Below are positions 819 to 35,025 of a stretch of DNA of 64,000 nt, in pieces. The notes beneath the pieces are model-generated. The model had not been told where the DNA came from, made no database searches, and saw only the letters and a list, made by a program, of their open reading frames with translations. Origin of the DNA: Candidatus Parcubacteria bacterium. GTDB lineage: Bacteria > Patescibacteriota > Patescibacteriia > Patescibacteriales > UBA12075. Every line of letters starts with the position of its first letter. Position 1 is the stretch's first letter. The position numbers and the translations under genes were made by a program. Location: NCBI GenBank assembly GCA_963827735.1, contig CAWHBO010000005.1, forward strand, positions 187,669 through 251,668, in the 5' to 3' direction.

Positions 819-1577
819 TCAAACTATCTCCCACAAAGCTTTGAACACTTCTCTTTGATTCTTTGCTAATTCAATATTGCGAATTTCAATTGCATAATGC
901 GGTCTTTCGTTAGTAATTATCATGATTATATATTCACCACACACCCAATAAGTAGCAGTGAAAGGAATGCTTTTTTTAAAGTTTTTAATTTGTCTCTTGG
1001 AATAGTTTTGTTTTTCCATCACCTTCTCTATTTCTGATTTATTTGATAAAAGTCGAAGCTCCAAATCATTGGGAACATTTGCCCAGTACCAATCTATCCA
1101 TTGCTTATAATGTTCGACAAAAGTATGATCCTGATAACCAAGCCATTTTTCTTTATTTTCTAATATGCTTTTATTCCAAATCGGAGTTTGTTTGTATAAA
1201 AAATTTTCCAGTTCTTCTTCCGCGATGAATCTAACTTTTGGTATTGTATATTTAGTATTGGATGATACTTGTTTTAACTCTTGAATAGCACTTTTGATAA
1301 GGGTTCTTTTATTTCTTATATCCTCTTCTTGTTTTTTGATGATATTTTCCAAATCTTCCGGAGGAAGAGCAACTACATATTTAATCGGGCTAGAAAGATC
1401 TTCACTGATTACGTTTTTCTTCTTAAGCTCACTAATGATACTATAGACTGTACTTCTGTTAATTCCGGTAATTTGCGCCAAATCAGCCGGAATAATTTTT
1501 CCATTTTTTAATATTGCTAAATATACATCCGCTTCTTTGTTAGAAAAACCTAGATTGTTTAATATTTTTTGTATCAT
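819..1577 (-). CDS. TrmB-like HTH transcriptional regulator
   Basis: N-terminal winged-HTH (GFSNKEADVYLAILKNGKIIPADLAQITGINRSTVYSIISELKKKNVI) typical of the TrmB family. 252 aa ORF divergent from the transporter operon. Confidence 0.6.
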   Translation of the reverse strand: MIQKILNNLGFSNKEADVYLAILKNGKIIPADLAQITGINRSTVYSIISELKKKNVISEDLSSPIKYVVALPPEDLENIIKKQEEDIRNKRTLIKSAIQELKQVSSNTKYTIPKVRFIAEEELENFLYKQTPIWNKSILENKEKWLGYQDHTFVEHYKQWIDWYWANVPNDLELRLLSNKSEIEKVMEKQNYSKRQIKNFKKSIPFTATYWVCGEYIIMIITNERPHYAIEIRNIELAKNQREVFKALWEIV

Positions 1578-1734
1578 AATATTTATAAATTATAAGCCAA
1601 TATCTATATAATATCTTTTTGTTTATATTTTGTCAACAAATAATTATATATTTGTTTAAATATAATAAACATACTATTTAAATTTAATTTTAGCAAAAAT
1701 TTAACTTAAATTTTATAAATATTATATAATAATA

Positions 1735-1763
1735 TTGACAGTAATATAACTATATGTTATACT
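1735..1763 (+). promoter_or_regulatory. Sigma70-like promoter for the ABC-transporter operon (TTGACA, 17-nt spacer, TATACT)
   Basis: ttgaca at 1735-1740, a 17-nt spacer, and tatact at 1758-1763, in the AT-rich divergent intergenic region upstream of the SBP gene. Confidence 0.5.
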
Positions 1764-1859
1764 AGAATATCAAATTAAAAAATTTCAAAATGTAACTAAA
1801 AATTTTGTTAAACTAAAAAGATTTGATAAAATATAATTAATTAATAAAAATTAACAATT

Positions 1860-2738
1860 ATGAAAAAGAATTTAATTCAAGTTTTGGGAGTCATTGTGTT
1901 GACAATCATTGTTAGTATGACAACCATAAATTTAAATCAAACAGAAACTTTACCGACAGTCACAAAAAACACCTACGACAAAGTTATGGAATCAGGAAAA
2001 ATTCGTGCCTGTTATGTTGTTTATCCTCCGGCTTCAATCAAGGATCCAAACACTGGTGAAATGTCAGGAGTATTTGTAGAGACTCTGAACAAAGCTGCTG
2101 AAAACATGGGACTTAGTGTAGAATGGAACGCTGAAGTCGGATGGGGAGAGATGATTGAAGCTTTAAATTCAAATCGTTGTGATATTATCGGCTCTCCGGC
2201 ATGGAGCAACTCTACTCGCGGGAGAAGCGCCGAGTTTTCTCAGCCAGTTTATTATAGTGCTTTAAATGCTTATGTTAGAATCAATGACGATCGCTTTAAT
2301 CAAGATATTAAAGTAGCTAATGGCGCAGATTACAAAATCGCTACGGTTGACGGAGAAACTTCACAAGTAATTGCATCTCGTCAATTTCCAAACGCAAAAA
2401 CGTTGGAGCTTCCACAATCAACTGATGTTTCTCAAATGCTACTTAACGTAGTTGATGGAAAAGCTGATATGGCATTCTTGGAACCGACAGTCGCGAACGA
2501 ATATATAAAAAATAATCCGGGTAAAATAAAAAATGTTACCAAGGAAAAACCGGTGGTTATCTATGGAAATGTGATGCTGATTAAAAAAGGTGAATTTGTC
2601 TTTAAGTCAGCGGTAGATAATGCTATAATAGAATTACTTAATAACGGATATACAGATGAATTAATTGATAGATATGAAGCTGAATATCCAGGTGGATTTT
2701 ATAGAGTGGCTTCACCATATTTAGTTCCACAAATATAG
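1860..2738 (+). CDS. ABC transporter substrate-binding protein (family 3, polar amino acid type)
   Basis: N-terminal signal/TM followed by an SBP_bac_3-like sequence. First gene of a contiguous SBP-permease-ATPase operon. Confidence 0.7.
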   Translation: MKKNLIQVLGVIVLTIIVSMTTINLNQTETLPTVTKNTYDKVMESGKIRACYVVYPPASIKDPNTGEMSGVFVETLNKAAENMGLSVEWNAEVGWGEMIEALNSNRCDIIGSPAWSNSTRGRSAEFSQPVYYSALNAYVRINDDRFNQDIKVANGADYKIATVDGETSQVIASRQFPNAKTLELPQSTDVSQMLLNVVDGKADMAFLEPTVANEYIKNNPGKIKNVTKEKPVVIYGNVMLIKKGEFVFKSAVDNAIIELLNNGYTDELIDRYEAEYPGGFYRVASPYLVPQI

Positions 2739-2745
2739 TAAATGC

Positions 2746-3411
2746 ATGTCAATAATTAACATTATTATTACATATAGAGAAGGCCTGCTTGCAGGCCTTC
2801 TCGTTACTCTTAAACTCAGTCTGATCATTTGGTCGGTCGGTTTGGTTATTGGTACTGCCCTTGGTTATCTCGGAACAAAATTTCGCAATGAAATCGGTAA
2901 GCCGTCCCAAGTTATTTCTTTCGTTCTTTCTGGCATACCGGTATTAATTCTTCTTTTCTGGCTTCATTATCCGTTGCAAGCCATGTTGAAAGTAAATATT
3001 AACCCTTTTTATACCGCATGTTTTGCTTTTTCTTTAATAAATGTGTTTGCCGTAGCGGATATAGTTAAATCGGCGCTTGCGAATTTTCCCACACAATACA
3101 ATTTGGCTGCAAAAGTCTGTGGTATGTCTTCTGTTCAGACATTTTTAAAAATTGAGTTACCCATAATTTTTCGACAAATTATCCCGTCTTTATTAAGTCT
3201 TCAAGTTGCTATGTTGCAATTAACTTTGTTTGCTAGCTTTATTTCTGTAGAGGAAATTTTTCGAGTGGCGCAGAGAATTAACGCAGTGGTATACAAGCCG
3301 ATAGAAGTCTATACTGCGCTGGCAATTTTTTTCTTAATTATTTGTTTACCATTAAATGGTTTATCAATTTGGTTAAAAAGAAAATATACCAGAAACTTGT
3401 CTGAAAACTAA
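2746..3411 (+). CDS. Amino-acid ABC transporter permease
   Basis: 221 aa, multi-TM protein positioned between the SBP and ATPase genes. Has an EAA-like loop region typical of HisM/GlnP-type permeases. Confidence 0.7.
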   Translation: MSIINIIITYREGLLAGLLVTLKLSLIIWSVGLVIGTALGYLGTKFRNEIGKPSQVISFVLSGIPVLILLFWLHYPLQAMLKVNINPFYTACFAFSLINVFAVADIVKSALANFPTQYNLAAKVCGMSSVQTFLKIELPIIFRQIIPSLLSLQVAMLQLTLFASFISVEEIFRVAQRINAVVYKPIEVYTALAIFFLIICLPLNGLSIWLKRKYTRNLSEN

Positions 3412-4649: not shown

Positions 4650-6131
4650 CTAATTTTTGTTGCTTTTGATTCCCGGAATAATTTTTTTAATCTGTTCAAA
4701 CCTTGAAAGCTTCGCCGCTTGTTTGATTTTTTCACGGGCGCGCGCCGTTTTTACGAATTTGAGCCAGTCGGTGTTGGGTTTTTTGCGGCTTTTTTCCGTG
4801 ATGATTTCCACCATATCGCCGTTTGTAAGTTCCGCGTCCAGAGCCGCCATCTTGTTGTTGATCAGCGCGCCGGTGGCTTTGTTGCCGATCTCGGAATGGA
4901 CGGCAAAAGCGAAATCCACCGGCGTGGATTTTTCCGGCAGATCAAAAACGTCGCCTTTTGGTGAAAAAACAAATATTCTTTTTTGGAAGACATCCACCTT
5001 GAGCTGGCTGATGAAGTCGTCAGTGTTCTTGATTTTTTTCTGGATCTCAAGAATGTCCTTGACCCAAGCCGGAGGTTTCATGTTTTTGACATCAGCGCTC
5101 TGCAACTGCTTGTAGTGCCAGTGTGCGGCAATGCCGTACAGAGATTCTTCGTTCATTTCTTCGGTTCGGATCTGGAATTCCGTGGCATTGTTATCCAGCC
5201 CGAAAACAGTGGTGTGCAGACTGCGATAGCCGTTGGGCTTGGGAACTGCGATATAATCCTTGATCCGATCTGATTGCGGCCTCCATAAGCTATGGATGAT
5301 ACCCATCGTTTTATAACAATCCGCAACGCTTGGGACAATGACGCGCAAGGCGAATACGTCATAGATCTCATCAAATTTATAATCCTTATTCTGCATTTTT
5401 TTGAAAATGCTGTAAAGGTGCTTGAAGCGGTTTTCAATCCTGAATTCTATTTTTTCCTCCTTGAGCCGGGGGCCGAGAGTGTTTTTTATTTTTTGAAAAT
5501 ATTGATTGCGCTCCAATTTTTTTTCAATTTCATATTTATATTCCAAAGCCTTAAAGTCTTCCGGATAAATATATTTAAAGCAAATATCTTCCATCTGCCA
5601 TTTTAATCGCCATATCCCCAGAAGTCCTGCAATGGGCGCATAAATTTCCATTGTCTCTTTTGCAATCCGCAGGCGTTTTTCTGGCGGCAAGGCATCCAGC
5701 GTTCTTAAATTATGCAAACGATCACAAAATTTTATAAGAATTACGCGCAAATCCTTGGCCATGGCTAAAAACATTTTCCTCAGCGATTCGCGGTATCTCT
5801 CAATTCCCCGGTATTTTATTTTGCTTAATTTCGTTATGCCTTCCACGAGTGTGGCAACATCTGAACCAAAATTTGTTTCAATATCTTTCAGTGTTGTCGT
5901 TGTGTCTTCAGGAACATCATGCAAAAGTCCGGCGATGATGGTGTTAAGATCAGCTTTCATCTGAGCGAGCAAAAAAGCCGTATGCAAGGAATGCTGAATG
6001 TAAGGTTCGCCGCTTTTTCTTTTTTGATCGCCATGCGCTTTCAGCGCGAATTCATAAGCCAGCCGAAGCATATCCAAATCAACTTTTGGGTTGTTATCTT
6101 TGACTTTGGATATGATTTGGTCAATGGTCAT
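4650..6131 (-). CDS. rel: Short RelA/SpoT-family (p)ppGpp synthetase/hydrolase (HD + synthetase + TGS; no ACT domain)
   Basis: HD motif (HGDQKRKSGEPYIQHSL...HD), RelA/SpoT synthetase motifs, and a TGS-like C-terminus. At 493 aa it is shorter than canonical Rel. Confidence 0.85.
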   Translation of the reverse strand: MTIDQIISKVKDNNPKVDLDMLRLAYEFALKAHGDQKRKSGEPYIQHSLHTAFLLAQMKADLNTIIAGLLHDVPEDTTTTLKDIETNFGSDVATLVEGITKLSKIKYRGIERYRESLRKMFLAMAKDLRVILIKFCDRLHNLRTLDALPPEKRLRIAKETMEIYAPIAGLLGIWRLKWQMEDICFKYIYPEDFKALEYKYEIEKKLERNQYFQKIKNTLGPRLKEEKIEFRIENRFKHLYSIFKKMQNKDYKFDEIYDVFALRVIVPSVADCYKTMGIIHSLWRPQSDRIKDYIAVPKPNGYRSLHTTVFGLDNNATEFQIRTEEMNEESLYGIAAHWHYKQLQSADVKNMKPPAWVKDILEIQKKIKNTDDFISQLKVDVFQKRIFVFSPKGDVFDLPEKSTPVDFAFAVHSEIGNKATGALINNKMAALDAELTNGDMVEIITEKSRKKPNTDWLKFVKTARAREKIKQAAKLSRFEQIKKIIPGIKSNKN

Positions 6132-6190
6132 AACTCATAACTCATAACTCATAACTCATAACTCATAACTCATAACTCATAACTCATAAC
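6129..6190. repeat. Heptanucleotide tandem repeat (TAACTCA / GTTATGA)x~9 abutting the rel start codon
   Basis: Perfect 7-bp period from 6129 to 6190. The last repeat supplies the ATG of rel. An inverted partner ctcataactcgtaactt lies at 6228-6246. Confidence 0.9.
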
Positions 6191-6394
6191 ATCTTACCTT
6201 AAAAGATTTTTAAAAATAGTTATAAGTTCCAAGTTACGAGTTATGAGAAAAAGAAAGCTGAAGCATGTTTTGGTATAATCTATAGTAATTGGTTTTTTCT
6301 TTGTCTTTTTTCCGCGTTTTATGTTATAATAGTATTACAAACCTGTGGATTAGTCAATTCGCAAAATTTCATTCTTTGCAATAAAACCCCCCCC

Positions 6395-8206
6395 ATGAAA
6401 AGAAAATTTATAATGCTTTTCAAAAAATCAGCTGTCTTGATGATGGTCTGTTTTATTTTTGCAGCCGCTTTTTTTGTATCCGGCGATGTTGCCAGAGCTT
6501 CTGACCCGATCAATCTTGAACAGGCAAAAGATCTGGGTCTTAAGACCGGAACGGTTACCGATCCGCGGATCCTGATTTTGAACATCGTAAAATATCTGCT
6601 TACTTTTCTGGGACTCTTAGCTGTCGTATTTGTCATGTGGGCGGGGTTTTTATGGATGACCTCTGAGGGCGACCCTGCGAAAATTGATAAAGCGAAAAAA
6701 ACTTTGGTTAACGCCGTTATCGGCGTGGCCATCATCATATCAGCTTTTGCCATCGTTTTGTATATCAACAAGCTTGTAACTGAAGGGATATCTTCACTGG
6801 GGGACAGTTCTGCCACTGTAAGCGTCGGTCCGGGCCTCAGTGCGGCCGGAGGAAGAGTCATTGAGAGCCATTATCCAGAGCGAGGCCAGACCAATGTCCC
6901 AAGAAACACCAAGATCGCGGTCACATTCAAGGAGCCGATTGACCAAGCAACCGTCATTGCCGATACCAATGGCAACACGATTTTCGGGGACTGGATTGAT
7001 GGCAACGGCAATTTGATCATGGAAGACGGCGAGTATGACAAGCTCATCCCGGAAAATGTCAGCATCGCTCTGGCCAATGCGATTTATACCGGCCCTTGGA
7101 AAGATAATCTTTATGCCAGTGTCAGCGCGGACAGAAGAACGTTTGTGTTCACACAAATTGCGCCTTACCTCGGCAGTCCCTCGGTTGACATCAGATATAG
7201 CGTTTATTTAACCTCAAACATAAAGAAAGCCAACGGATCTGATCTTTGGATGGGCGCGGGCAGCGGTTATCTTTGGAGTTTTGAAACAGGAACGATCATT
7301 GATACGGTTCCTCCCAAGGTGGAAAGCGTGGTCCCATATCCCGGAAACCAAGAGCCGCGAAACGTGATTTTACAGATAAATTTCAGTGAAGGCATCAGCC
7401 CGATCACAGTTAACAGTTCTTCAATTTCAGTGACAGCGGATGGAAGCGCGGTGAATGGATCTCTGTATGTTTCTAATGCTTATGCCACGGTTGAATTTTT
7501 ATCCGAAACGGTTTGCGGAGTCAATTCTTGCGGGCAGACAGTATATTGCTTGCCGGCTTCTTCCACAATTGCGTCTTTGATTGACGCCGCGACTCCCGGT
7601 CTGGATGACGGCATCACTGATTTGGCCGGCAATTCATTTGATGGGAACGGCGACGGGATAGCTTCCGGCTCTGTACTCATTGCCTTTAACGCCAACGAAG
7701 CGCTGGCTTTGGCGTCAGACGCATTGGCCGCCTATGCCGCGTCTCACGGCGATGATTATGCTTGGAATTTTGATACGACCAATACGATTGATATCACAGC
7801 GCCCTCAATCATCGCTATCAATCCGGGATTTAACGCTTACGGCATAAATGCGGGGACGGCGCCATCGGCAGTTTTTAACAAACTGCTTATGAAGAGTTCG
7901 GTCCTCAAGAATATCAGCGATGATGGCAGTGTGGCTTTGTACGCCAACCCCGCATCAGCGGAAGTTGTTTTCTTTTTAAGCACCGTATCGGATAATGCTT
8001 TAAAACAAAGCACAGTTCAGATAAAACACGCCAATTTTACCGACAGCGCGGTTTATGCCCCGGAGTTTAACTCCGGGATAAAAGATATTTATCAAAATTG
8101 TTTTACTCCCGATGGAACCGGCGGCGGCGGGCCGGCGTGTACGCCAACTGTTGCCATGCCTTATTGCTGTAATGGAACGTTGAGCGGTGTGAGTTGTAAA
8201 CCGTAG
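6395..8206 (+). CDS. Secreted/surface protein with a TrbC/VirB2-pilin-like N-terminal module (signal peptide + 2 TM helices) and a large extracellular region
   Basis: N-terminal motif ...TDPRILILNIVKYLLTFLGLLAVVFVMWAGFLWMTSEGDPAKIDKAKKTL..., shared almost residue-for-residue with the next gene. 603 aa. Promoter-like tataat at 6327-6332. Confidence 0.8.
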   Translation: MKRKFIMLFKKSAVLMMVCFIFAAAFFVSGDVARASDPINLEQAKDLGLKTGTVTDPRILILNIVKYLLTFLGLLAVVFVMWAGFLWMTSEGDPAKIDKAKKTLVNAVIGVAIIISAFAIVLYINKLVTEGISSLGDSSATVSVGPGLSAAGGRVIESHYPERGQTNVPRNTKIAVTFKEPIDQATVIADTNGNTIFGDWIDGNGNLIMEDGEYDKLIPENVSIALANAIYTGPWKDNLYASVSADRRTFVFTQIAPYLGSPSVDIRYSVYLTSNIKKANGSDLWMGAGSGYLWSFETGTIIDTVPPKVESVVPYPGNQEPRNVILQINFSEGISPITVNSSSISVTADGSAVNGSLYVSNAYATVEFLSETVCGVNSCGQTVYCLPASSTIASLIDAATPGLDDGITDLAGNSFDGNGDGIASGSVLIAFNANEALALASDALAAYAASHGDDYAWNFDTTNTIDITAPSIIAINPGFNAYGINAGTAPSAVFNKLLMKSSVLKNISDDGSVALYANPASAEVVFFLSTVSDNALKQSTVQIKHANFTDSAVYAPEFNSGIKDIYQNCFTPDGTGGGGPACTPTVAMPYCCNGTLSGVSCKP

Positions 8207-8215
8207 AAAATAAGA

Positions 8216-8322
8216 TTGGGAACCCACAAATCAACAAATTTCTACAAATCTACAAATTCAGACAAAAAGTTTTTATAAGTATTTGTTGATTTGTTGCTAT
8301 TCGTAGATTTGTGGGTTCCCAA
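8216..8322. repeat. AT-rich palindromic intergenic element (outer IR ttgggaacccacaaatc / gatttgtgggttcccaa, ACAAAT-rich arms)
   Basis: 17-bp perfect outer inverted repeat with imperfect inner arms. Same family as the element at 28559-28672. Confidence 0.8.
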
Positions 8323-8379
8323 ACAAAGTTAAAATATAGAGACAATTAAATTTATTGTATTGTAATTATTTTTTAAAAG

Positions 8380-16178: not shown

Positions 16179-16279
16179 TCCCGCCATTTATTATCTTCTG
16201 TTGAGGGCGGGATCCCGCAGAAGGCGGGAGATATTGGGATATTAAGATATTAGAATATTAGGAAATTAGAAATTAGAAA

Positions 16280-16702
16280 TTGGTTATTTGGGTTATGATA
16301 GAAATTAACAATCAGACAAGAACAAAGATTGATTTGAAAAAAGTCAGGCAAGTGGCGGAAAATTTTTTGGAGTTTTATAAACAGGGAGATAAAGAAGTTT
16401 CCATTGCTTTTATCGGGGATAAGAGAATGCGGGATTTGAACCGGATGTACCGCCGAAAAGACAAAGTCACTGATATTTTATCATTTTGTGATGACGGTCA
16501 AGCAATTTTGGGAGAAGTTGTGATTGATTTTCAGCAGATCAAACGGCAAGCCAAGCAATTTTCAAAAAGCGCCAAAGAAGAATTGATTTTTATTTTGGTC
16601 CATGGACTTTTGCATCTGATCGGGCGGGAAGATGATACGGAAAAGGGGCGGTTGGAAATGATTGAGGAAGGGGAGAGGTTTCTTTTGGCAAATTTTTTTT
16701 AA
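16280..16702 (+). CDS. ybeY: rRNA maturation endoribonuclease YbeY (true start probably the in-frame ATG at 16295)
   Basis: Metal-binding H...H.....H motif (HGLLHLIGREDDTEKG). MIEINNQ-type N-terminus from 16295. Confidence 0.85.
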   Translation: MVIWVMIEINNQTRTKIDLKKVRQVAENFLEFYKQGDKEVSIAFIGDKRMRDLNRMYRRKDKVTDILSFCDDGQAILGEVVIDFQQIKRQAKQFSKSAKEELIFILVHGLLHLIGREDDTEKGRLEMIEEGERFLLANFF

Positions 16703-17137: not shown

Positions 17138-17503
17138 ATGTCAATCAAAACTTCAATCATGATTTTGCTTTTCTGCCTGCTGGCGGCTTTTATCGCGGCT
17201 TGGTATCTGGCCGACAAAATGCCGGGAAATCCGAATATGAGAAAAGCGCAATTTGAGCAAAAACAGTTAAGCGAAGAAGAGCTTAAAAAAAACAAAATGG
17301 AAGCTGATTGGGAGCGCGCGGTGAAAGATTTGCAGGAGCGGGAAGCAAGATTGACGCCGGAAGACCGCAAACGGATGGAAGCTGATTGGGAACAAGCGGT
17401 GAAAGATTTGCAGGAACGAGAAGCAAAAATGACGCCGGAAGACCGCGAAAAAATGGAGGCTGATTGGAAAAAGATGATGGAAACTTTTGAAAAAAATCAA
17501 TAA
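17138..17503 (+). CDS. Small membrane-anchored coiled-coil protein with three about 30-aa tandem repeats
   Basis: N-terminal TM, then three copies of MEADWE.AVKDLQEREA..TPEDR. The DNA repeat period is about 90 nt (17290-17470). Confidence 0.55.
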   Translation: MSIKTSIMILLFCLLAAFIAAWYLADKMPGNPNMRKAQFEQKQLSEEELKKNKMEADWERAVKDLQEREARLTPEDRKRMEADWEQAVKDLQEREAKMTPEDREKMEADWKKMMETFEKNQ

Positions 17504-20128: not shown

Positions 20129-21775
20129 ATGAAGCATCGGGAAAGGAAGGAGGTAGGGAGTATGGGAAATTTAACTTTTAGAAAGTTTAGAATGGTGTTT
20201 ATTGTGTTTGTGGTAATTATCCTTTTAGCAGGATGTAACGGCGGCGGTGGAGATTCCGACAACGACGGAGGAAGCAATCCTGTAAAGAGCACTTGGTATC
20301 AGGACCCAGACAGTGATTTACTTCCTTCTGGTAATCCAATGACCGCTAGTACTCAGCCGGGCACCAATTATTATGTGGAGTCGCATTTTACTTCACTTAA
20401 GACAGACAACTGCCCAGATGTCGCTAACCAGAATCAGGAAGATATGGATAAAGACGGCATCGGCGATGCCTGTGACAGCGATAAAGACGGTGACGGAATT
20501 GCGAATGGATCCGACAATTGTTCAGGAACAGCAAATCCCGATCAACTGGACACAGACAAAGATGGCATCGGCGAGGCCTGTGACAGCGATAAAGACGGTG
20601 ACGGAATTGCGAATGGATCCGACAATTGTTCAGGAACAGCAAATCCCGATCAACTGGACACAGACAAAGATGGCATCGGCGACGCCTGTGACAGCGATAA
20701 AGACGGTGACGGAATTGCGAATGGATCCGACAATTGTTCAGGAACAGCAAATCCCGATCAACTGGACACAGATAAAGATGGTATTGGCAATGTTTGCGAT
20801 TCTGACATTGACGGAGATGGAATATCTAATGACAAGGATAATTCCCCCGCAATCCATAATCCTGACCAATCGGATTTGGATAAAGACGGTATCGGGGATG
20901 TAAGTGACCCTGATAAAGACGGTGACGGAATATCCAATGACGAGGATAATTCCCCCACAATCCATAACCCTGACCAATCGGATTTGGATAAAGACGGTAT
21001 CGGGGATGTAAGTGACCCTGATAAAGACGGTGACGGAATATCCAATGACGAGGATAATTGCCCAACAACCCCTAACCAAGCACAAACCGATGTTGACGAA
21101 GACGGCACAGGCGATGAGTGTGACGATTGTTGCGATAATTGCAGTAGTTTTGAATACGTCGCTTCGCAGACGTATAAGAATTGGGGCGATTCTCCGTCTC
21201 TGGCTTTGGTGGCAGCGTCTATGTATGGATATACAACCGGTCCATATCCTGCTCCTGGCAACATCGCGGTTTTTAAAACCCAAAGTCAGTTTGGTAATCC
21301 GGCTGAACCGCCATATTATCCAGAGTTCGCTGGAACGATTGGGATCATCAACGAAGTTGACGGGAATGTCATTACTGTTCAGTTCGGCGAAGAGGATATC
21401 AAAGAGTATTACCAGGTTGGTGCCGGTTTATTGGTGGATAATATAGGTAAGTATTATTACAATTTTACTTACATATATTATGCGGGACTACCAAGCCATT
21501 GGTATGAAATCTCGCAAAGCAAATATTATTTTGCTGGTTTTGACCAGCAAGTAAAAAAAGGAGAAGTATGCCGTCTGAGGGCGCCTTATAGCGCCAACAC
21601 CACATACGCCTGGACATCACCAGGCGCAGTTACATTGTCGGACAGTTCAAGCTTTATGCCGACCTTTGATACTTCAAATTTGGATGTCGGCTGGTACGAA
21701 TTCACCGTTACGCTGACGCAGCCTTATGACGTGCCTGCGACAGCGCCTGTAAGGGTTGAGATAATCAACCCATAA
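20129..21775 (+). CDS. Lipoprotein with thrombospondin type-3 repeats and a C-terminal globular domain
   Basis: Lipobox-like LLAGCNGG. Repeated DKDGIGDACDSDKDGDGIANGSDNCSGTANPDQLDTD (TSP3 consensus DxDxDG...DNC...NPDQ.D.D). Confidence 0.75.
   Translation: MKHRERKEVGSMGNLTFRKFRMVFIVFVVIILLAGCNGGGGDSDNDGGSNPVKSTWYQDPDSDLLPSGNPMTASTQPGTNYYVESHFTSLKTDNCPDVANQNQEDMDKDGIGDACDSDKDGDGIANGSDNCSGTANPDQLDTDKDGIGEACDSDKDGDGIANGSDNCSGTANPDQLDTDKDGIGDACDSDKDGDGIANGSDNCSGTANPDQLDTDKDGIGNVCDSDIDGDGISNDKDNSPAIHNPDQSDLDKDGIGDVSDPDKDGDGISNDEDNSPTIHNPDQSDLDKDGIGDVSDPDKDGDGISNDEDNCPTTPNQAQTDVDEDGTGDECDDCCDNCSSFEYVASQTYKNWGDSPSLALVAASMYGYTTGPYPAPGNIAVFKTQSQFGNPAEPPYYPEFAGTIGIINEVDGNVITVQFGEEDIKEYYQVGAGLLVDNIGKYYYNFTYIYYAGLPSHWYEISQSKYYFAGFDQQVKKGEVCRLRAPYSANTTYAWTSPGAVTLSDSSSFMPTFDTSNLDVGWYEFTVTLTQPYDVPATAPVRVEIINP
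20457..21057. repeat. Near-perfect 120-bp tandem repeats inside the TSP3 lipoprotein gene (3 copies of type 1, 2 copies of type 2)
   Basis: Identical 120-nt blocks starting near 20460, 20580 and 20700, and a second block type at about 20818 and 20938. Confidence 0.85.
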
Positions 21776-22110: not shown

Positions 22111-23376
22111 ATGAAAGATGAAATCATCGCCGGTCTTGATATCGGCTCAACTTCAATCCGTTTGGTGGTCGGACAGCCCAAGAATGACGGCAATGGTGAA
22201 AAATTGCAGATCATTGGCGCAGTGTCGGTGGAAGCGCACGGGATCAACAAAGGAGCCGTCAAATCCATTGATGACGTGACCTCATCAATTTCAGCCTGTT
22301 TGGAAAAAGCGGAAAGACTGGTCGGTGTGCCGGTGGAAAGCGTTTGGGTTTCCATAAATTCGCCCCATACCAGATGTGAGAAAAGCCGCGGGGTGGTGGC
22401 AATCGGCAGAAGCGACGGAGAAATCACTCAAGATGACATTGAAAGAGCGTTGGAAGCCGCGCGTGCCCTTTCCGTTCCACCCAATTACGAAATTTTACAT
22501 GTGATACCGGTAAAATTCACCGTAGACAATCAGGAAGACATCAAAGATCCCATCGGTATGACAGGGGTGCGCTTGGAAGTGGAAACATTGATCATCCAGG
22601 GGCTTACCAGCCAGATCAAAAATTTAACCAAAGCCATCTTCAGAACCGGTTTGGACATTGAAGATTTGGTTTTATCTCCTCTGGCGGCCGCGGAAGCCGT
22701 TATCGGCGAAAAGCAGAAAGAGCTTGGCTCGGCTTTGATCAACATCGGCGCCAGCACCACGAGCGTCGCCGTCTTTGAAGAAGGTGAACTTTTACATACA
22801 GCCGTCATCCCGATCGGCTCAGAGCATATCACTTCTGATATCGCCATTGGCCTTCGGTGTCCTTTGAACTTGGCAGAGAGGATAAAGAAAGAAATCGGCA
22901 ATGCTTGGCCGGAAAACTACAAGAAAAATGAAAAAATAGACATGTCGGAAATTGCCGCCGAAGAAGGGGCGGAAGGAGAGCTCAAAGAAGTTTCACAAAA
23001 GTATTTATCAGAAATCATTGAAGCCCGCGTGGAAGAGATTTTTGAAAAAGTTGACGACGAATTCAAAAAGATTGAACGTTCCGGCATGCTTCCGGGCGGA
23101 GTATACCTGATCGGCGGAGGCACAAAACTGGCGGATATCATTGAAGTTGCAAAAAAGACCTTACGACTCCCAGCCAGTCTGGGCGCAAACAGAAATGTCC
23201 GGACCGTCATTGATAAAGTAAATGAAACTGATTACCTAACCGCCCTCGGGCTGACAGCTTGGGGCGCAAAGGTGGCAGAAAGTTCCGGCGGAGGCAGCGG
23301 ATTCAAAGGCGGAAAGATGAAGATTGGAAAATCGGTGGAGAAGATCAAGGATTGGGTGAAGAATTTGATACCATAG
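22111..23376 (+). CDS. ftsA: Cell division protein FtsA
   Basis: Actin-like ATPase N-terminus (LDIGSTSIRLVVGQ). 421 aa. C-terminal amphipathic tail. Confidence 0.85.
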   Translation: MKDEIIAGLDIGSTSIRLVVGQPKNDGNGEKLQIIGAVSVEAHGINKGAVKSIDDVTSSISACLEKAERLVGVPVESVWVSINSPHTRCEKSRGVVAIGRSDGEITQDDIERALEAARALSVPPNYEILHVIPVKFTVDNQEDIKDPIGMTGVRLEVETLIIQGLTSQIKNLTKAIFRTGLDIEDLVLSPLAAAEAVIGEKQKELGSALINIGASTTSVAVFEEGELLHTAVIPIGSEHITSDIAIGLRCPLNLAERIKKEIGNAWPENYKKNEKIDMSEIAAEEGAEGELKEVSQKYLSEIIEARVEEIFEKVDDEFKKIERSGMLPGGVYLIGGGTKLADIIEVAKKTLRLPASLGANRNVRTVIDKVNETDYLTALGLTAWGAKVAESSGGGSGFKGGKMKIGKSVEKIKDWVKNLIP

Positions 23377-23422
23377 TTTACGAAATACAAATTTATACAA
23401 AGATACAAATATACAAATATAC

Positions 23423-23511
23423 AAATATACAAAATACGAACTTATACAAATATACAAACAAACGTTTTTTTTAAACTTTTTTGTATATTTGTATAAGTTC
23501 GTATTTTGTAT
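23423..23511. repeat. AT-rich palindromic element (about 30-bp perfect inverted repeat of ATACAAAT-type units with a T-run in the loop)
   Basis: tatacaaaatacgaacttatacaaatatac and its exact reverse complement flank aaacaaacgttttttttaaactttttt. Lies between ftsA and glyQS. Confidence 0.8.
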
Positions 23512-23537
23512 AGCAAAAATAAGTTAACCAAAAAAAT

Positions 23538-24926
23538 ATGACAGAAAACTTAACTTTAGAAAAAATCGTTTCTTTCTCAAAACGCCGCGGCTTCATTTTT
23601 CCTTCCTCGGAAATTTACGGCGGCTTTGCAGCTGTGTATGATTACGGCCCATACGGCGTTGAGCTTTCCAAAAACATCAAAAATGAGTGGTGGAAAGCGA
23701 TGGTGCAGATGAGAGAAGACATCGTCGGGCTGGACTCTGGCATTTTTATGCATCCGCGCATCTGGGAAGCTTCCGGCCATGTGGCGGGGTTTTCTGACCC
23801 GCTTTCAGAATGCAAGACCTGCCACATGCGAGTCAGGGTTGACCATCTTTTGGAAGATATCGGCATCACGGCGGACGAGAAAATGACCGAGGATGAGATC
23901 AATGATTTGTTCAACCAAAACAAAAAAAAGATCAAATGCCCCAAGTGCGGGAACAGTGATTTTTCCGAAGCCAAAAAATTCAACCTGCTTGTCAAATCCA
24001 ATCTGGGAAATTTTACCGGTGATTGGGACAAAGAGCCGGCTTATCTCCGCGGTGAGACCTGCCAGGGGATTTATGTGAATTACAAGAATGTTTTGGATTC
24101 AGCGCGGGTTCAGATTCCTTTCGGCATCGCGCAGATCGGCAAAGCCTTCCGCAACGAGATCACCGCGCGGCAGTTCATTTTCCGCACCCGCGAATTTGAA
24201 CAGATGGAAATGCAATTTTTTACTTCTCCGGAAAAAGAAATGGAAGAATATGAAAAGTTAAGGCAGGCAAGATGGCAATATTATCTGGATCTCGGAATCA
24301 AAGAAGAAAATTTGAAATGGCACAAGCACGAGAATTTGGTTTTTTATGCCAAGGAAGCATATGACATTGAATATAATTTCCCCTTCGGCTTTAAAGAGCT
24401 GGAAGGAGTCCATGCGCGCGGGGACTATGACCTGACACAGCACAGCAAATTTTCCGGAAAAGATCTCTCATACGTTGACCAGCGCGCAAATGAAAAATAT
24501 ATGCCGCATATCATTGAATCTTCCGTCGGAGTCGGCCGGACCTTGCTGGCTGTTATGTGCGATGCTTATGTTGAGGAGGAAGTCGATGGCGGGGAGCTGA
24601 GAACTGTCCTTAAGTTCCCAAGAAAATTAGCGCCGATAAAAATCGCGGTTTTTCCGCTTCTGAAAAACAAACCGGTTTTGGTAAGCAAGGCTGAGGAAAT
24701 CTTCAAATCATTATCAAAAGATTATATGTGTGAGTTTGACGACAACGGCAACATCGGCAAACGCTATCGCCGCCAAGATGAGATCGGCACGCCGTTCTGC
24801 GTGACGGTGGATTTTGAAACGATTGAAAAAGATAGCATGGTCACCGTCAGGGACAGGGATACGATGAAACAGGAGCGGGTTTTAATAAATAATTTGAAGG
24901 GATATTTTGTGGAGAAATTTGTTTAG
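23538..24926 (+). CDS. glyQS: Glycine--tRNA ligase (class II, homodimeric GlyQS type)
   Basis: N-terminus MTENLTLEKIVSFSKRRGFIFPSSEIYGGFAAVYDYGPYG, characteristic of GlyQS. 462 aa. Confidence 0.85.
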   Translation: MTENLTLEKIVSFSKRRGFIFPSSEIYGGFAAVYDYGPYGVELSKNIKNEWWKAMVQMREDIVGLDSGIFMHPRIWEASGHVAGFSDPLSECKTCHMRVRVDHLLEDIGITADEKMTEDEINDLFNQNKKKIKCPKCGNSDFSEAKKFNLLVKSNLGNFTGDWDKEPAYLRGETCQGIYVNYKNVLDSARVQIPFGIAQIGKAFRNEITARQFIFRTREFEQMEMQFFTSPEKEMEEYEKLRQARWQYYLDLGIKEENLKWHKHENLVFYAKEAYDIEYNFPFGFKELEGVHARGDYDLTQHSKFSGKDLSYVDQRANEKYMPHIIESSVGVGRTLLAVMCDAYVEEEVDGGELRTVLKFPRKLAPIKIAVFPLLKNKPVLVSKAEEIFKSLSKDYMCEFDDNGNIGKRYRRQDEIGTPFCVTVDFETIEKDSMVTVRDRDTMKQERVLINNLKGYFVEKFV

Positions 24927-24977
24927 CAGGAAAAAATTTGAAATTAGAAAATTAGGAAATTAAGAAATTGGGAATTT

Positions 24978-25008
24978 TAAAAGGCATCCGTTCTTCTGGA
25001 TGCCTTTT
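24978..25008. terminator. Rho-independent terminator hairpin
   Basis: ggcatcc / ggatgcc stem with flanking A/T runs. Preceded by a GAAATTA-type heptamer tract at 24937-24975. Confidence 0.75.
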
Positions 25009-27955: not shown

Positions 27956-28130
27956 TAAAAGATGTTAAAATTCCAAATTACAAATAACAAATTTCAAATA
28001 AATTCAAAATTACAAATTCAAAACATTTTGTTAAAACCAATTTTGAGTAATAAAAAATTTGGATGAATATTTAGAATTTAGAATTTAGAATTTATTTGAA
28101 ATTTGTTATTTGTTATTTGGAATTTATTCA
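27956..28130. repeat. AT-rich palindromic element (about 30-bp IR aaattccaaat(a/t)acaaataacaaatttcaaa) with an internal TTTAGAA x4 tandem
   Basis: Left arm 27958-27990, right arm about 28093-28125 (reverse complement). tttagaa tandem at 28071-28096. Immediately upstream of the response-regulator gene. Confidence 0.75.
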
Positions 28131-28558: not shown

Positions 28559-28672
28559 TTTCAAGACCCACAAATCTACAAATTTCAACAAATCAACAAA
28601 TCCGATTTAAACGTTTTATATAAAATTTCTAGATTTGTTGTGAATTTGTTGATTTGTGGGTAAAATATAAAC
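28559..28672. repeat. AT-rich palindromic element of the same family as 8216-8322 (IR acccacaaatc...gatttgtgggt)
   Basis: acccacaaatctacaaatttcaacaaatcaacaaatc versus the reverse complement of gatttgttgtgaatttgttgatttgtgggt. Immediately upstream of ndk. Confidence 0.8.
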
Positions 28673-28691: not shown

Positions 28692-29294
28692 ATGAAGACT
28701 GAAAAAACATTAGTGATCATCAAACCGGATGGAGTCCAGCGCTCTTTGATTGGAGAGATCGTTAAACGCTATGAACGAGTCGGCCTTAAGCTCATTGCCA
28801 TGAAGATGGTACAGCCGGCGGAAGATATGGCGACCAGGCATTATTACGAAGTGGGGGGCGATGAATGGATTGAAGAAGTTGGACGCAAAGCGCGCGCCGC
28901 TTATGAGAAAAAAGGCCAGGAATCACCGTATAAGACCAACAAAGACAATGGCTGGGCAGTGCTTAAAGCCAATGCCAAGTATTTAAGCGCCGGGCCGGTC
29001 GTTGCCATGATCTGGCAAGGAGCCTCGGCCGTTGAATTGGTCAGAAAACTTACCGGCGCCACCGCGCCTCTTATGGCTGACGTCGGAACGATCCGCGGTG
29101 ATTTTACGCTTGATTCATACGCTTTGGCCGATACAGATCAGAGAAGCGTCAGGAATTTGATCCACGCTTCCGGAACGACTGATGAAGCAAGACAAGAGAT
29201 TAAGATCTGGTTTGAGGAAGATGAGATTATGAAATATAAAAGCATACAGGAAAGGATTTTGTATGATGTTAATTTGGATGGGATTAGGGAATAG
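28692..29294 (+). CDS. ndk: Nucleoside diphosphate kinase (extended, 200 aa)
   Basis: LVIIKPDGVQRSLIGEIVKRYERVGLKLIAMKM, an NDK fold with insertions. Confidence 0.8.
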   Translation: MKTEKTLVIIKPDGVQRSLIGEIVKRYERVGLKLIAMKMVQPAEDMATRHYYEVGGDEWIEEVGRKARAAYEKKGQESPYKTNKDNGWAVLKANAKYLSAGPVVAMIWQGASAVELVRKLTGATAPLMADVGTIRGDFTLDSYALADTDQRSVRNLIHASGTTDEARQEIKIWFEEDEIMKYKSIQERILYDVNLDGIRE

Positions 29295-29354
29295 GAAATT
29301 AGGAAATTAGAAATTAAGAAATTGGGATATTTGGATATCTAGATTGGGAAAATA

Positions 29355-29382
29355 TTGACAAATATAATAGTTGTCCTATAAT
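29355..29382 (+). promoter_or_regulatory. Strong sigma70-like promoter (TTGACA, 16-nt spacer, TATAAT) driving a leaderless small ORF
   Basis: ttgaca at 29355-29360 and tataat at 29377-29382. Confidence 0.5.
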
Positions 29383-29390
29383 GATTATAT

Positions 29391-29489
29391 ATGAATAAAA
29401 CCACCCCAAAACTGAGCATTTCACAAACCATCATTATTATGGTCGTCTTGTTGCTTGGCGCTCGGGTGGCTCGTTTAGCGGTTGTGTAA
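29391..29489 (+). CDS. Small hydrophobic peptide (32 aa, MNKTTPKLSISQTIIIMVVLLLGARVARLAVV)
   Basis: ATG about 9 nt after the -10 element. Single TM-like helix. Followed by a terminator hairpin at 29507-29540 (aaggccatcc / ggacggcctt, then a T-run). Not in the supplied ORF track because it is shorter than 60 aa. Confidence 0.45.
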   Translation: MNKTTPKLSISQTIIIMVVLLLGARVARLAVV

Positions 29490-29646
29490 AAAGTTTACAT
29501 AAAGACAAAAAAGGCCATCCGAAAAGGACGGCCTTTTTTGTTGGTTCTTTGAAAAAGAAAAAAGAATAAAAAAATAAAAAGAACAAGAAGAATGAAAAGA
29601 CGGATATTGGGAGATTTGGAAATTAGAATATTGGAAAGTTAGAGAG

Positions 29647-29895
29647 TTGGTATTATTAATCTTTAAGAAAAAGGAGAAAAACATGGATATTCAAGCAATG
29701 GAATCAGAAGACAGAACCAATGAATGGGTAGAGAAAGGAGTGAGGGTAAGGAATAATATATCAACGCAAATTAATGTTTTGGAAAAAAGATTGATATCAG
29801 GAAATGGGTATGATCGAGAGAAAACCATGTTTGATCTGGAAACGGCTCAAAAGGGGCTTACGAAATTTTTTGAAAAACATCCACCAATGTTTTAA
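29647..29895 (+). CDS. Hypothetical small protein (82 aa)
   Basis: ORF with a plausible RBS (aaggag 29670-29675). Followed by a ccgcatgcgg palindrome at 29914-29925. Confidence 0.35.
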   Translation: MVLLIFKKKEKNMDIQAMESEDRTNEWVEKGVRVRNNISTQINVLEKRLISGNGYDREKTMFDLETAQKGLTKFFEKHPPMF

Positions 29896-30091
29896 CGTTT
29901 CCAAACAACAAAAGCCGCATGCGGATTTTACCCCGTAAGAAATCCTTAGCGCGAGGCCGGAGTATCACCGGATAGCGGAAGGGCAAGGCTTAACATTGCA
30001 ACCGGAAAAAGCGGATTATCGCTTTTTCCGGTTGCCTCAAAATTTTTGTAATTTTCTTGCATATTCTTATAAATATGGTATAATTATCCAC

Positions 30092-30162
30092 ATAATGGTG
30101 AATTTATAATCACCATTAGGGAAAACAAGAAAACGCCCCGCAGTAATGCGGGGCGTTTTTTT
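30092..30162 (+). ncRNA. Candidate about 70-nt small RNA (promoter TTGCAT-16-TATAAT at 30058-30085; two hairpins; intrinsic terminator)
   Basis: ttgcat at 30058-63 and tataat at 30080-85. Transcript contains hairpin aatggtga/tcaccatt and terminator gccccgcagtaatgcggggc followed by 7 U. Confidence 0.45.
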
Positions 30163-30319
30163 ATTTCCGCCCGCCACGAGGTCGCAAAGCGACTTTTTCA
30201 GGGGCGTGCCACGAGGTTGCAAAGCAACTTTTCGTGGCTAATGTAAGCTTATAATTTTTGACAAAAAGATATTTTTTTGTTATTATAAAGGACAGGTATT
30301 ATTATTTGTTATAAAAAAA

Positions 30320-33711: not shown

Positions 33712-34040
33712 ATGGAAAAGAAATTCAGTCTTATAACGGCAGTAATAGCAATCATAATGGGGGCAATCTTTTTTTCATCGCCTGTCCTTGCCGGAGGCGA
33801 CGGTTATTCAGTCAAACAGGCTGAAGATCTGTGGCAATATGGTGTTGCTGATAAACAAAAGGCAATCACAGTGTTGGAAAAAGTGATAGACCAAAAACCT
33901 TCAAACAACAAGGCGCGTTATCTGTTGGGGCAATATAATTTTGAACTTGGCAAATTTGATGAGGCTTACAAAGCTTTTTCTCCCAATCCGGTTAAAGTGG
34001 ATTATGGCAAAGAGATCGCTGACCTCTACTTTAAAAATGC
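33712..34040 (+). CDS. Small secreted TPR-like protein, 3'-truncated at the compositional junction (the ORF runs artificially into high-GC DNA)
   Basis: Signal peptide [29 protein letters not shown] and TPR-like helices. No stop codon before the GC shift at about 34040. Confidence 0.55.
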
Positions 34041-34043
34041 CGA

Positions 34044-35025
34044 GTCAAGGAGGATCAGGACTACCTCCAGCGCCACCCCGACGGCCCCACCTGCCATTTC
34101 CCTCGGCCGGGCTGGAAGCTGCCGCGCCGCTACCAGGAGGAGGGCCGCGACAGCACGCGGTGGCTCGGCTTCCCGTTCCGCGACGGCGACATCGTGATCA
34201 GCACCCCGTCCAAGACCGGGACCACGTGGGCGCAGATGATCTGCGCGCTGCTGATATTCGGCGAGCCGCAGCTCCCGGCCCCGCTCGGGCGCCTGTCGCC
34301 GTGGCTGGATCACCTGGTCGCGCCACGAGATGAGGTACATGCCCTGCTGGCCGCCCAGCAGCACCGGCGGTTCATCAAGACCCACACCCCACTGGACGGC
34401 CTGCCGCTCGACCCCCGCGCCACCTACCTGGTGACCGCCCGGCACCCGCTGGACGTGGCCGTGTCGACCTACCACCACTGCGCCAACATCGACGAGGCAC
34501 GGTGGCGGCAGCTGATGGGCGAGCCCGAGCCGCCGAGGCCACCGCCGCCGCCAGAGCCGCTGCGCGACTGGCTGCTCCGCTGGATCGCCGACGACACCAA
34601 CCCGGCTCGAGGACCTCGACACGCTGCCCGGCCTCATGTACCACCTCACCGACGCCTGGGCCCGGCGCCGCGAGCCGAACATCCTGCTCGTGCACTACGA
34701 CAACCTGTGCGCCGACCTTGACGGCCAGATGCGCTGGCTGGCAGGCCAGCTCGGCATCACCATCCCCGAGCACGCCTGGCCCGCGCTCGTCCGGGCGGCC
34801 ACATTCGAGAACATGTCCCGCAACGCGGACCAGCTGGTCCCTGCCCCCGGCCTGTTCAAGAGCAACGCCGCGTTCTTCCGCCGGGGCACCTCCGGCGAGG
34901 GACGCGAGATCCTCAGCGGCGCCGAGATCGCCGACTACCACGCCCGCGTGGCGGGGATGGCGCCCCCCGACATGCTTGCCTGGCTCCACTCGCCCCGCCC
35001 CGGAGCCGTGACGGCAATGCCGTAA
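34044..35025 (+). pseudogene. PAPS-dependent sulfotransferase, 5'-truncated at the junction and split by a frameshift near 34600-34615
   Basis: 5'-PSB motif TPSKTGTTW and 3'-PB motif RHPLDVAVS in frame 0. The C-terminal part ([25 protein letters not shown]...FFRRGTSGEGREI) is in another frame. No start codon on the high-GC side. Confidence 0.65.

Follow-up and report, generated by a model that had tools for sequence, protein, structure and literature searches.

The 64,000-nucleotide stretch of DNA analysed here (the window; part of contig CAWHBO010000005.1, attributed to a Candidatus Parcubacteria bacterium) carries on its minus strand, at 4650..6131, a rel gene for a short bifunctional RelA/SpoT homologue of 493 amino acids with the Pfam domains HD_4 (6e-47), RelA_SpoT (5e-39) and TGS (3e-19). 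The closest homologues of this protein, from metagenome-assembled genomes of Falkowbacteria, Parcubacteria and other Patescibacteria, share 60–81% identity with it and are annotated as bifunctional (p)ppGpp synthetase/hydrolase. Directly at the start of rel lies a tract of nine copies of the heptanucleotide GTTATGA (minus strand, 6190–6128), which reads from the sequence with zero mismatches and which Tandem Repeats Finder (TRF) called at 6128–6190 with a score of 126, 100% matches, 9.0 copies and a period of 7. According to TRF, this is the sole long perfect short-unit array in the window. The tract is bounded by the unique anchor sequences CTTTTAAGGTAAGAT and CCATTGACCAAATCATATCC.

The ATG of the ninth repeat unit (6129..6131, minus strand) opens the open reading frame (ORF) 4650..6131, and the N-terminus that it specifies, MTIDQII, aligns with those of the homologues. 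Because Rel homologues begin with MTI(D/E/N)QII at the position matching this tract-adjacent ATG, the unit-9 ATG is, judging from the alignment, the genuine rel start, and the claim of a first-pass annotation of this DNA that nine perfect 7-bp repeats are fused to the start of rel was confirmed by both the TRF call and the homologues. A public NCBI/ENA protein of 473 amino acids (P0123, contig of 256,523 bp), seemingly the same sequence, begins at Met21, which drops 20 conserved N-terminal residues of Rel (6071–6131); the start-codon calling of that record seems to have been misled by the repeat.

Every repeat unit contains an ATG, and these ATGs rotate through all three frames. Units 1–7 each open a five-codon mini-ORF, MSYEL-TGA, unit 8 opens MSYDH-TGA (stop at 6123–6121) and unit 9 is rel, while an additional ATG at the tract edge (6192–6190) opens ML-TGA. 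The earlier description of MSYEL-stop mini-ORFs cycling through three frames is therefore correct by our map of upstream ORFs (uORFs), exactly so for units 1–7. Every mini-ORF stop overlaps, as ATGA, the ATG two units downstream, and the final odd-numbered stop (6130–6128) overlaps the rel ATG (6131–6129). Stops occur in every frame of the tract on both strands (TGA, and TAA on the other strand). TGA serves as an ordinary stop here, with 3 of 27 ORFs ending in it, and code 11 leaves long, Pfam-complete ORFs unbroken. Because of these stops in all frames, and of the ordinary use of TGA, the tract is non-coding.

Two less orthodox accounts of the tract, taken together, are scarcely credible: that it is an expansion made by the assembler, or that it encodes an N-terminal repeat in which TGA is read as sense. 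Some lineages of the Candidate Phyla Radiation (CPR) read TGA as Gly, which gives the second idea a foothold. An N-terminal extension under an alternative code (codes 4/25) was nevertheless ruled out by the intact ORFs under code 11, by the homologues, which start at MTI, and by the stops in every frame of the tract. In favour of an artefact, the window does contain an evident artificial junction near 34,050. GC content rises from ~0.38 to ~0.70 within a few bases at 34040–34060, in the middle of ORF 33712..34197, and then stays at 0.59–0.74 to the window end. Because of this mid-ORF jump and the persistently high GC beyond it, the window is a Patescibacteria segment (1 to ~34,050) joined to unrelated high-GC DNA, that is, chimeric or concatenated contigs and not one genome. 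Against an artefact at rel, the 63 nt of the tract are shorter than standard reads, and a second assembler reproduced at least 30 nt of it beside the same ATG. The contig in question, from the Logan assembly of ERR12035931, encodes an identical Rel protein and ends 26 nt before the ATG, with 30 nt of pure repeat at the k=31 limit. This gives independent confirmation for 30 nt or more of the tract, and the count of nine comes from one assembly only.

In the same leader, 27 nt upstream of the tract, lies an arm of 30 nt (6218..6247, minus strand) made of four degenerate inverted heptamer units, in the rel sense CTCATAA, CTCGTAA, CTTGGAA and CTTATAA followed by CT, which is 83% complementary to four tract units. 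The best 30-nt match of the upstream spacer to the complement of the array scored 25/30, compared with a mean of 16.1 and a maximum of 21 in shuffled sequences. Because none of the 2000 shuffles reached 25/30, a chance origin of the complementarity between arm and tract is excluded. The first-pass annotation had placed an inverted partner of about two repeats at 6228–6246. The partner is indeed real, non-random and part of the same leader, but it is larger than claimed (the full 30 nt at 6218–6247), and the 17-mer lies at 6247–6231. The intervening loop or spacer (6191..6217, minus strand) holds the A/T palindrome ATTTTTAAAAAT, a Shine-Dalgarno-like AAGG and the extra ATG that opens ML-stop.

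Folding of the 223-nt leader as RNA gave a minimum free energy (MFE) of −49.1 kcal/mol (z = −4.07), with none of 200 shuffles equally stable. A helix of ~36 bp, in which the arm is predicted to pair with units 1–4 or 1–5, is kept in both the MFE and the centroid folds, in support of the earlier suggestion that partner and tract could pair. The units left outside this helix are predicted to self-pair weakly via G-U pairs. The tract (6128..6190, minus strand) would thus be composed of the start-proximal 3' arm of a leader hairpin and four to five free units. In the rel sense the hairpin is predicted at −35.9 kcal/mol (36 bp, of which 5 are G-U) vs −23.9 for the antisense RNA, and this greater rel-sense stability fits a role at the RNA level. 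No Rfam model matched at its gathering score in the whole window; the sub-threshold matches at 6161–6248 are to plant and animal microRNA-precursor models only, which indicates a generic long hairpin.

Upstream of the hairpin, a consensus scan identified a candidate rel promoter, TTGACT-17 nt-TACTAT (6329..6357, minus strand), whose TTGAC(T) and −10-like box are present in 18/18 aligned relatives. Because this promoter core, conserved in 18 relatives, lies upstream of it, the tract most likely sits inside a 5' untranslated region (UTR) of rel of ~190 nt. The unit number could thus alter expression from where the tract is placed, between the conserved core at 6357–6329 and the rel ATG, with the ATG included, given a transcription start site positioned by conservation. 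A start site downstream of the tract had been named beforehand as an outcome that would speak against regulation by the repeat; the only conserved core, that of the candidate promoter, lies ~190 nt upstream of rel. The first-pass annotation had also proposed that a change in copy number would alter the spacing between promoter and start. This needs rewording, as a change of unit would alter the length of the UTR only and not the −35/−10 geometry.

TTGAC lies 226 nt ahead of the rel ATG in the window, compared with 47–90 nt in most of the 18 relatives and 162–165 nt in L006 and L108. L164 (79% identity) has a near-identical core, followed there by an A-rich leader of 30 nt, and the core of L064 is near-identical too. 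From this comparison we infer that ~170 nt of the rel 5' UTR, hairpin and tract included, are a lineage-specific insertion. A repeat search found the extended −10 segment a second time, as GCATGTTTTGGTATAAT (6263..6279, plus strand), 76% identical to 6314–6330. The extended −10-like box of this copy, TGGTATAAT, stands 51 nt from the conserved TGTTATAAT, within a 17-nt direct repeat of 76% identity, which suggests that part of the promoter core was duplicated locally together with the leader insertion.

A hairpin in a leader raises the question of a leader-peptide/terminator attenuator, in which translation of MLQLSFSHNS or MSYEL would choose between hairpins and premature termination of rel. 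The uORF map does contain an upstream mini-ORF of 10 codons, MLQLSFSHNS-TAA (6234..6266, minus strand; predicted translation only), which crosses the 5' arm, so a ribosome there would open the hairpin, and the earlier idea of an attenuator-like leader would tie amino-acid supply to Rel. We nonetheless consider this account very improbable. There are zero terminator-like stems with a U run in 5900–6700 on either strand, the helix being followed by further repeat units; no mutually exclusive alternative helices were seen beyond register slippage; MSYEL, MSYDH, ML and MLQLSFSHNS contain no run of regulatory codons; there is no Rfam leader match; and the element is not conserved in relatives. We have accordingly dropped the label attenuator-like.

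The tract has no mismatch and the 30 nt of its partner have 5, a difference from which it follows, on sequence grounds, that the nine copies expanded after the arms had diverged. Consistent with a recent origin is its distribution. In the comparison of orthologous loci, proposed earlier as a check, the tract itself is absent from the nearest relatives with DNA read (77–81% identity), and unrelated heptamer arrays occur in the rel leaders of four relatives. Most relatives have repeat-free rel leaders of 25–60 nt, and among those at 78–81% identity the leader ranges from ~30 to ~330 nt. Arrays within the leader next to the ATG were found in L087 (−37..−6), L108 (−37..−5), L166 (−106..−82) and L161, and arrays of unrelated units upstream of the promoter in L004/L095, L005, L020, L064 and L086 (all of period 7) and in L084 (period 8). 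The L161 contig (Logan; Rel 81% identical) begins with a perfect (TAAAATT)x4.1 array at positions 1–35 that ends 6 nt before the rel ATG, which gives a second, independent example of perfect heptamers at the start of rel. Within the 90% protein cluster, two JGI contigs of sample 3300075153 carry P0121 (7,479 bp) and P0122 (12,592 bp); the spacer is 125 nt for P0122, and for P0121 it is 240 nt to the called start and ~255 nt to the MTI start; we infer that the miscalled N-terminus of P0121, MLNVNI, which back-translates to about ATGTTAAATGTTAATATT, reflects degenerate GTTAxxx-like heptamers beside the ATG. Taken together, these sequences indicate that heptamer arrays at rel are recurrent, not conserved and not rel-specific. 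Scans of genomes and of metagenomes for a second copy of the locus gave best identities of 77% and 72%, respectively, and a look-up of the pilin-like neighbour described below for the same purpose returned no match.

The recurrence of a 7-nt period could point to a protein. In this account, the period would match the footprint of single-strand-binding proteins with an OB-fold (oligonucleotide/oligosaccharide-binding fold), as in cold-shock proteins and S1, and the array would be an RNA or single-stranded DNA landing pad or decoy, recruiting or titrating a protein of this kind at starts lacking a Shine-Dalgarno site, a role that has been proposed for TAACTGA repeats. In its favour, period 7 dominates the arrays near rel in relatives despite their unrelated units, the genome is poor in Shine-Dalgarno sites, and TAACTGA repeats end 1 nt before Beggiatoaceae start codons, CspB binding one protein per heptamer (PMC4679880). 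The unit sequence, however, is common neither within the genome nor among relatives, arrays are also found at 3' gene ends and as inverted pairs, hence double-stranded, and a candidate binder was not identified. We therefore regard protein binding as improbable.

We propose instead that the locus is a 5'-UTR repeat hairpin, comparable to that of the Haemophilus influenzae hmw genes, that acts as a rheostat on Rel, a reading to which we assign a probability of about 0.5. The starting point would be a young microsatellite, generated by replication slippage, that forms the start-proximal arm of a long hairpin which this lineage alone has acquired in its rel leader. The rel mRNA would start near 6322, and its leader would fold into the ~36 bp helix between the upstream arm and units 1–4 or 1–5, while units 5–9 would stay weakly self-paired and present decoy AUGs and five-codon mini-ORFs directly ahead of the rel AUG. 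Helix and decoy AUGs together would lower Rel translation and make output depend on the unit number, because of the established effects of uORFs and of structure, here in a genome that initiates mostly without Shine-Dalgarno sites: 20 of 27 genes have no obvious one, and starts mostly follow A/U-rich leaders. Perfect repeats of the 9x7 kind are classical substrates for slipped-strand mispairing, and the tract, with 9.0 copies at 100% identity, exceeds the slippable length of ~5 or more units for units of 4–7 nt. By this route the tract would gain and lose units, and Rel dosage would come to vary from cell to cell within a population, in the graded manner of a rheostat and not as a clean on/off switch. 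Switching of rel by repeat number, and with it the earlier label phase-variable, is plausible by analogy with known loci. The long duplex would also be a plausible substrate of RNase III, as in the H. influenzae hmw leader; no rnc gene is present among the annotated ORFs of the 34-kb part, which has no bearing on the rest of the genome.

The mini-ORF register allows a more clear-cut mechanism, to which we give little credence. Ribosomes would enter at 6192 or 6187 and hop by termination-reinitiation at the AUGA overlaps along the path 6192 > 6187 > 6173 > 6159 > 6145 > 6131, reaching the rel AUG only for odd unit numbers n. For even n the path would end in MSYDH-stop, 8 nt inside rel, and a change of one unit would switch Rel translation between high and low. 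AUGA start/stop overlaps are an established translational-coupling motif, the register, with stops that overlap the ATG two units on and finally the rel ATG, is a direct property of the sequence, and the AAGG lies 9 nt ahead of the unit-1 AUG. Five or six serial reinitiations would, however, be inefficient, and the predicted hairpin would hide units 1–4 together with the AUGs used for entry. The idea that a Shine-Dalgarno site directs ribosomes to the edge of the tract was rejected, since AAGG is present but most genes lack such a site, and entry at even-numbered AUGs is then equally likely. Moreover, the arrays of relatives contain no AUG, and the design is not conserved. In its furthest form, with an odd-n parity switch that would let a minimal-genome episymbiont hedge its bets through sub-populations of different stringent-response set-points, and the intergenic palindromes of this Patescibacteria clade as an undescribed, fast-evolving class of post-transcriptional control, the proposal is just as improbable.

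Palindromes with arms of 7–8 nt tandem units occupy most of the longer intergenic regions, both here and in relatives; by our own count, such arrays or long inverted repeats are present in ~10 of the 16 intergenic regions above 80 nt within the low-GC 34 kb. Besides the rel hairpin they include a palindrome with 53-nt arms of ACAAATNN units (8216–8322), a palindrome region at 23385–23515 in which (TATACAAA)x8 faces (TTTGTATA)x4 (23394–23512; 83% matches), a palindrome with 60-nt arms that are 90% complementary (27965–28128) and a further long one with arms of 7–8 nt tandem units (28564–28664). Additional arrays were noted at 16229–16281, 24931–24982, 29283–29335 and 29551–29650. The array at 23394–23512, between ftsA (22111..23376) and a class II aminoacyl-tRNA synthetase gene (23538..24926), shows the same 2:1 expansion of one arm as the rel element, but is imperfect. 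Throughout, the intergenic palindromes and arrays have centres that are A/T palindromes, no U run follows any of them, and they occur both after stop codons and before starts. The stretches 8214–8324 and 28560–28668 are copies of one dispersed element of ~105 nt, with 84% mean column identity, units of ACAAATNN and ends CCCACAAATC...GATTTGTGGG, which suggests a family resembling repetitive extragenic palindromic elements (REPs) or miniature inverted-repeat transposable elements (MITEs). A two-unit probe of the rel-leader element, allowing up to 3 mismatches, found no second copy in the 64 kb, hitting the tract, its partner and two isolated sites only, and we found no description of this palindrome class for Patescibacteria in the literature searched. 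By its sequence, the rel tract is one young instance of a repeat-hairpin habit common in these genomes.

On this background, the tract could be a neutral by-product: a palindrome would have landed in the rel leader, and one arm would have slipped to take in the start-codon heptamer, leaving Rel expression essentially unaffected and the tract without function. We regard this as possible, although on balance doubtful. Comparable elements stand in most of the longer intergenic regions, as counted above, the array at 23394–23512 has the same 8-versus-4 unit asymmetry, relatives either have no units in the rel leader, as is the case for many, or have units of unrelated sequence, the RNA strand bias is not consistent, and the rel start is only moderately structured. 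On the other side, nine extra AUGs with overlapping stops ahead of a Shine-Dalgarno-less AUG, combined with a ~36-bp helix, would be unlikely to be translationally silent, the 34 kb contain no long perfect array other than the rel tract, and heptamer arrays beside the rel ATG recur in at least four other lineages.

Several further observations weigh against a graded control of Rel by the hairpin. Elements of the same type lie in many unrelated intergenic regions, 3' gene ends among them, and a rel-specific role is not required to explain the one at rel. The promoter scan by itself does not rise above shuffles, and the transcription start site rests on conservation. The strand asymmetry of the hairpin is possibly due to chance (4/4 transitions are wobble-compatible, p ~0.26, by our own count), and no consistent RNA-strand asymmetry was seen in four other hairpins of the window and ten hairpins of relatives. 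The rel start, whose low accessibility (0.36, fourth lowest of 25 genes) speaks for such control, is no outlier among these genes, and the prediction for the rel AUG follows no simple trend with n, the AUG being paired at n ≤ 4 and n ≥ 8 and open only at n = 5–6. Finally, no copy-number variation was seen, the sole other contig with an identical Rel breaking inside the tract. Two lines of argument were set aside. Strand asymmetry as proof of RNA function is strong at rel, statistically weak, and absent or inconsistent in other hairpins, and accessibility as a function of n was judged too model-dependent a basis for a mechanism.

The divergent neighbour of rel (6395..8206, plus strand) encodes a T4SS-pilin/TrbC-like protein with Big_5 domains (Pfam), separated from rel by a spacer of 263 nt. 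The pair is syntenic, with the same neighbour in L162, L163, L166 and JGI contigs. A candidate promoter of this gene, TTGTCT-18-TGTTATAAT (6301..6330, plus strand; scan and conservation), has an extended −10 that overlaps the rel −10 back to back. The motif TTGACTAATCCACAGGTTTGTAATACTATTATAACATAAAA (6357–6317) carries the rel-sense TTGACT-17-TACTAT and, on the opposite strand, the perfect extended −10 TGTTATAAT, and the reverse complement of the conserved motif ATTATAACA is found in relatives, which backs the promoter of the pilin-like gene. In L003 (69% Rel identity), the divergent T4SS-pilin-like gene itself contains an 8-nt repeat, TTATTGCT (2808–2850, minus strand; ~5 copies, 91% matches), inside ORF 1195..2877(−). 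It occupies codons 12–24, in the signal-peptide or transmembrane region, where a change of unit would shift the frame, and is a classical-looking candidate for phase variation of a CPR surface protein.

Elsewhere in the window, an in-frame 108-nt unit with ~6 copies in total (20441–21124, ORF 20129..21775) encodes thrombospondin type 3 (calcium-binding) repeats, and an in-frame 78-nt unit with 2.2 copies (17294–17467) lies in ORF 17138..17503 of 121 amino acids. After an ndk-like gene, ~1 kb (29295–30319) is devoid of ORFs of 100 amino acids or more and contains several A-rich arrays of 6–15 nt, with no Rfam match at gathering score.

If copy number varies and tunes Rel, the locus would be, as far as the searched literature goes, the first simple-repeat control of a stringent-response enzyme and the first contingency-type locus reported in CPR/Patescibacteria, and it would extend stochastic heterogeneity from the surface antigens of pathogens to the core physiology of ultra-small environmental symbionts. 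An inert tract would be an ordinary young microsatellite. Our literature search found no simple-repeat tract at rel, relA or spoT and no phase variation in Patescibacteria, an absence that is not proof. The tandem-unit palindromes, which turn over quickly between relatives, provide a cheap handle for strain typing, and explain assembly breaks and mis-called starts in these genomes, such as the Met21 start of the public rel record.

Among known systems, the tract recalls other heptamer repeats, including the short tandemly repeated repetitive (STRR) sequences of cyanobacteria. The heptamer TAACTGA forms direct repeats ahead of start codons in Beggiatoaceae, Cyanobacteria and Bacteroidetes, with one unit reused at 169 sites (PMC4679880). 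As at rel, these are intergenic heptamers within a few nt of a start codon, in a genome with few Shine-Dalgarno sites, with stops in all forward frames and with assemblies that tend to break in long arrays. The rel-sense unit, however, is GTTATGA, and its reverse complement, TAACTCA, is one mismatch off and in the wrong orientation; each locus here has its own unit and not a single reused one, and the TAACTGA sets are predicted to be unstructured direct repeats, whereas the present elements are inverted pairs forming hairpins. Membership of the rel tract in this group was rejected, since unit, orientation and genome-wide reuse all differ; period, position at a start codon lacking a Shine-Dalgarno site and closed reading frames agree.

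A second point of comparison is provided by contingency loci. In H. influenzae lic1, CAAT repeats with alternative ATGs are translated and shift the frame. In M. catarrhalis uspA2, AGAT repeats lie in the 5' UTR, as cited in PMC4679880. In its sequence, the rel locus shares with this type a perfect short repeat at the translation start, a unit that is not a multiple of three and ATGs in several frames. It differs from lic1 in that the tract is closed within 5 codons in every frame and cannot be coding, and from contingency loci in general in that an alarmone enzyme is an unusual class of gene.

With AUGA coupling and uORF control, the locus shares mini-ORF stops that overlap the downstream AUG as AUGA, the last of them overlapping the AUG of rel. 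In known examples the coupling joins a pair of genuine genes, or a gene and a single uORF, and to our knowledge no relay of five identical five-codon ORFs made by a microsatellite has been described. The wider family of palindromes resembles REP/MITE-like elements in being long, imperfect and confined to intergenic DNA, with two copies of one family in the window, and differs from them in that the arms are internally tandem (7–8 nt units) and the units differ between loci, with no transposase or target duplication evident.

The fullest likeness is to the H. influenzae hmw1A/hmw2A leader, whose (ATCTTTC)n repeat is part of the transcript, folds with a complementary arm into a long imperfect hairpin and is cut by RNase III, adhesin level being inverse to n (PMC12721329). 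That RNase III cut and inverse expression were shown experimentally, whereas rel is known from its sequence. The two have no sequence relationship, the rel unit GTTATGA facing a partner of degenerate A/T-rich heptamers, vs ATCTTTC and a G-rich arm at hmw. They also differ in layout: the repeat at rel forms the 3' arm, abuts the coding region, supplies the start codon with its last ATG and has units that carry AUG and UGA, while the hmw repeat is the 5' arm and ends >100 nt before the ATG. Moreover, Rel is a housekeeping alarmone enzyme of an environmental CPR bacterium, and hmw a pathogen adhesin. In both, nevertheless, a 7-nt repeat lies between promoter and start codon in a long 5' UTR (at rel, a probable one), pairs (at rel, by prediction) with an arm of the same leader and leaves surplus repeats outside the helix, and copy number tunes expression gradually at hmw, as we propose for rel. 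On these shared features, the hmw leader is the closest experimentally characterised system, an analogue of the rel tract and not a homologue.

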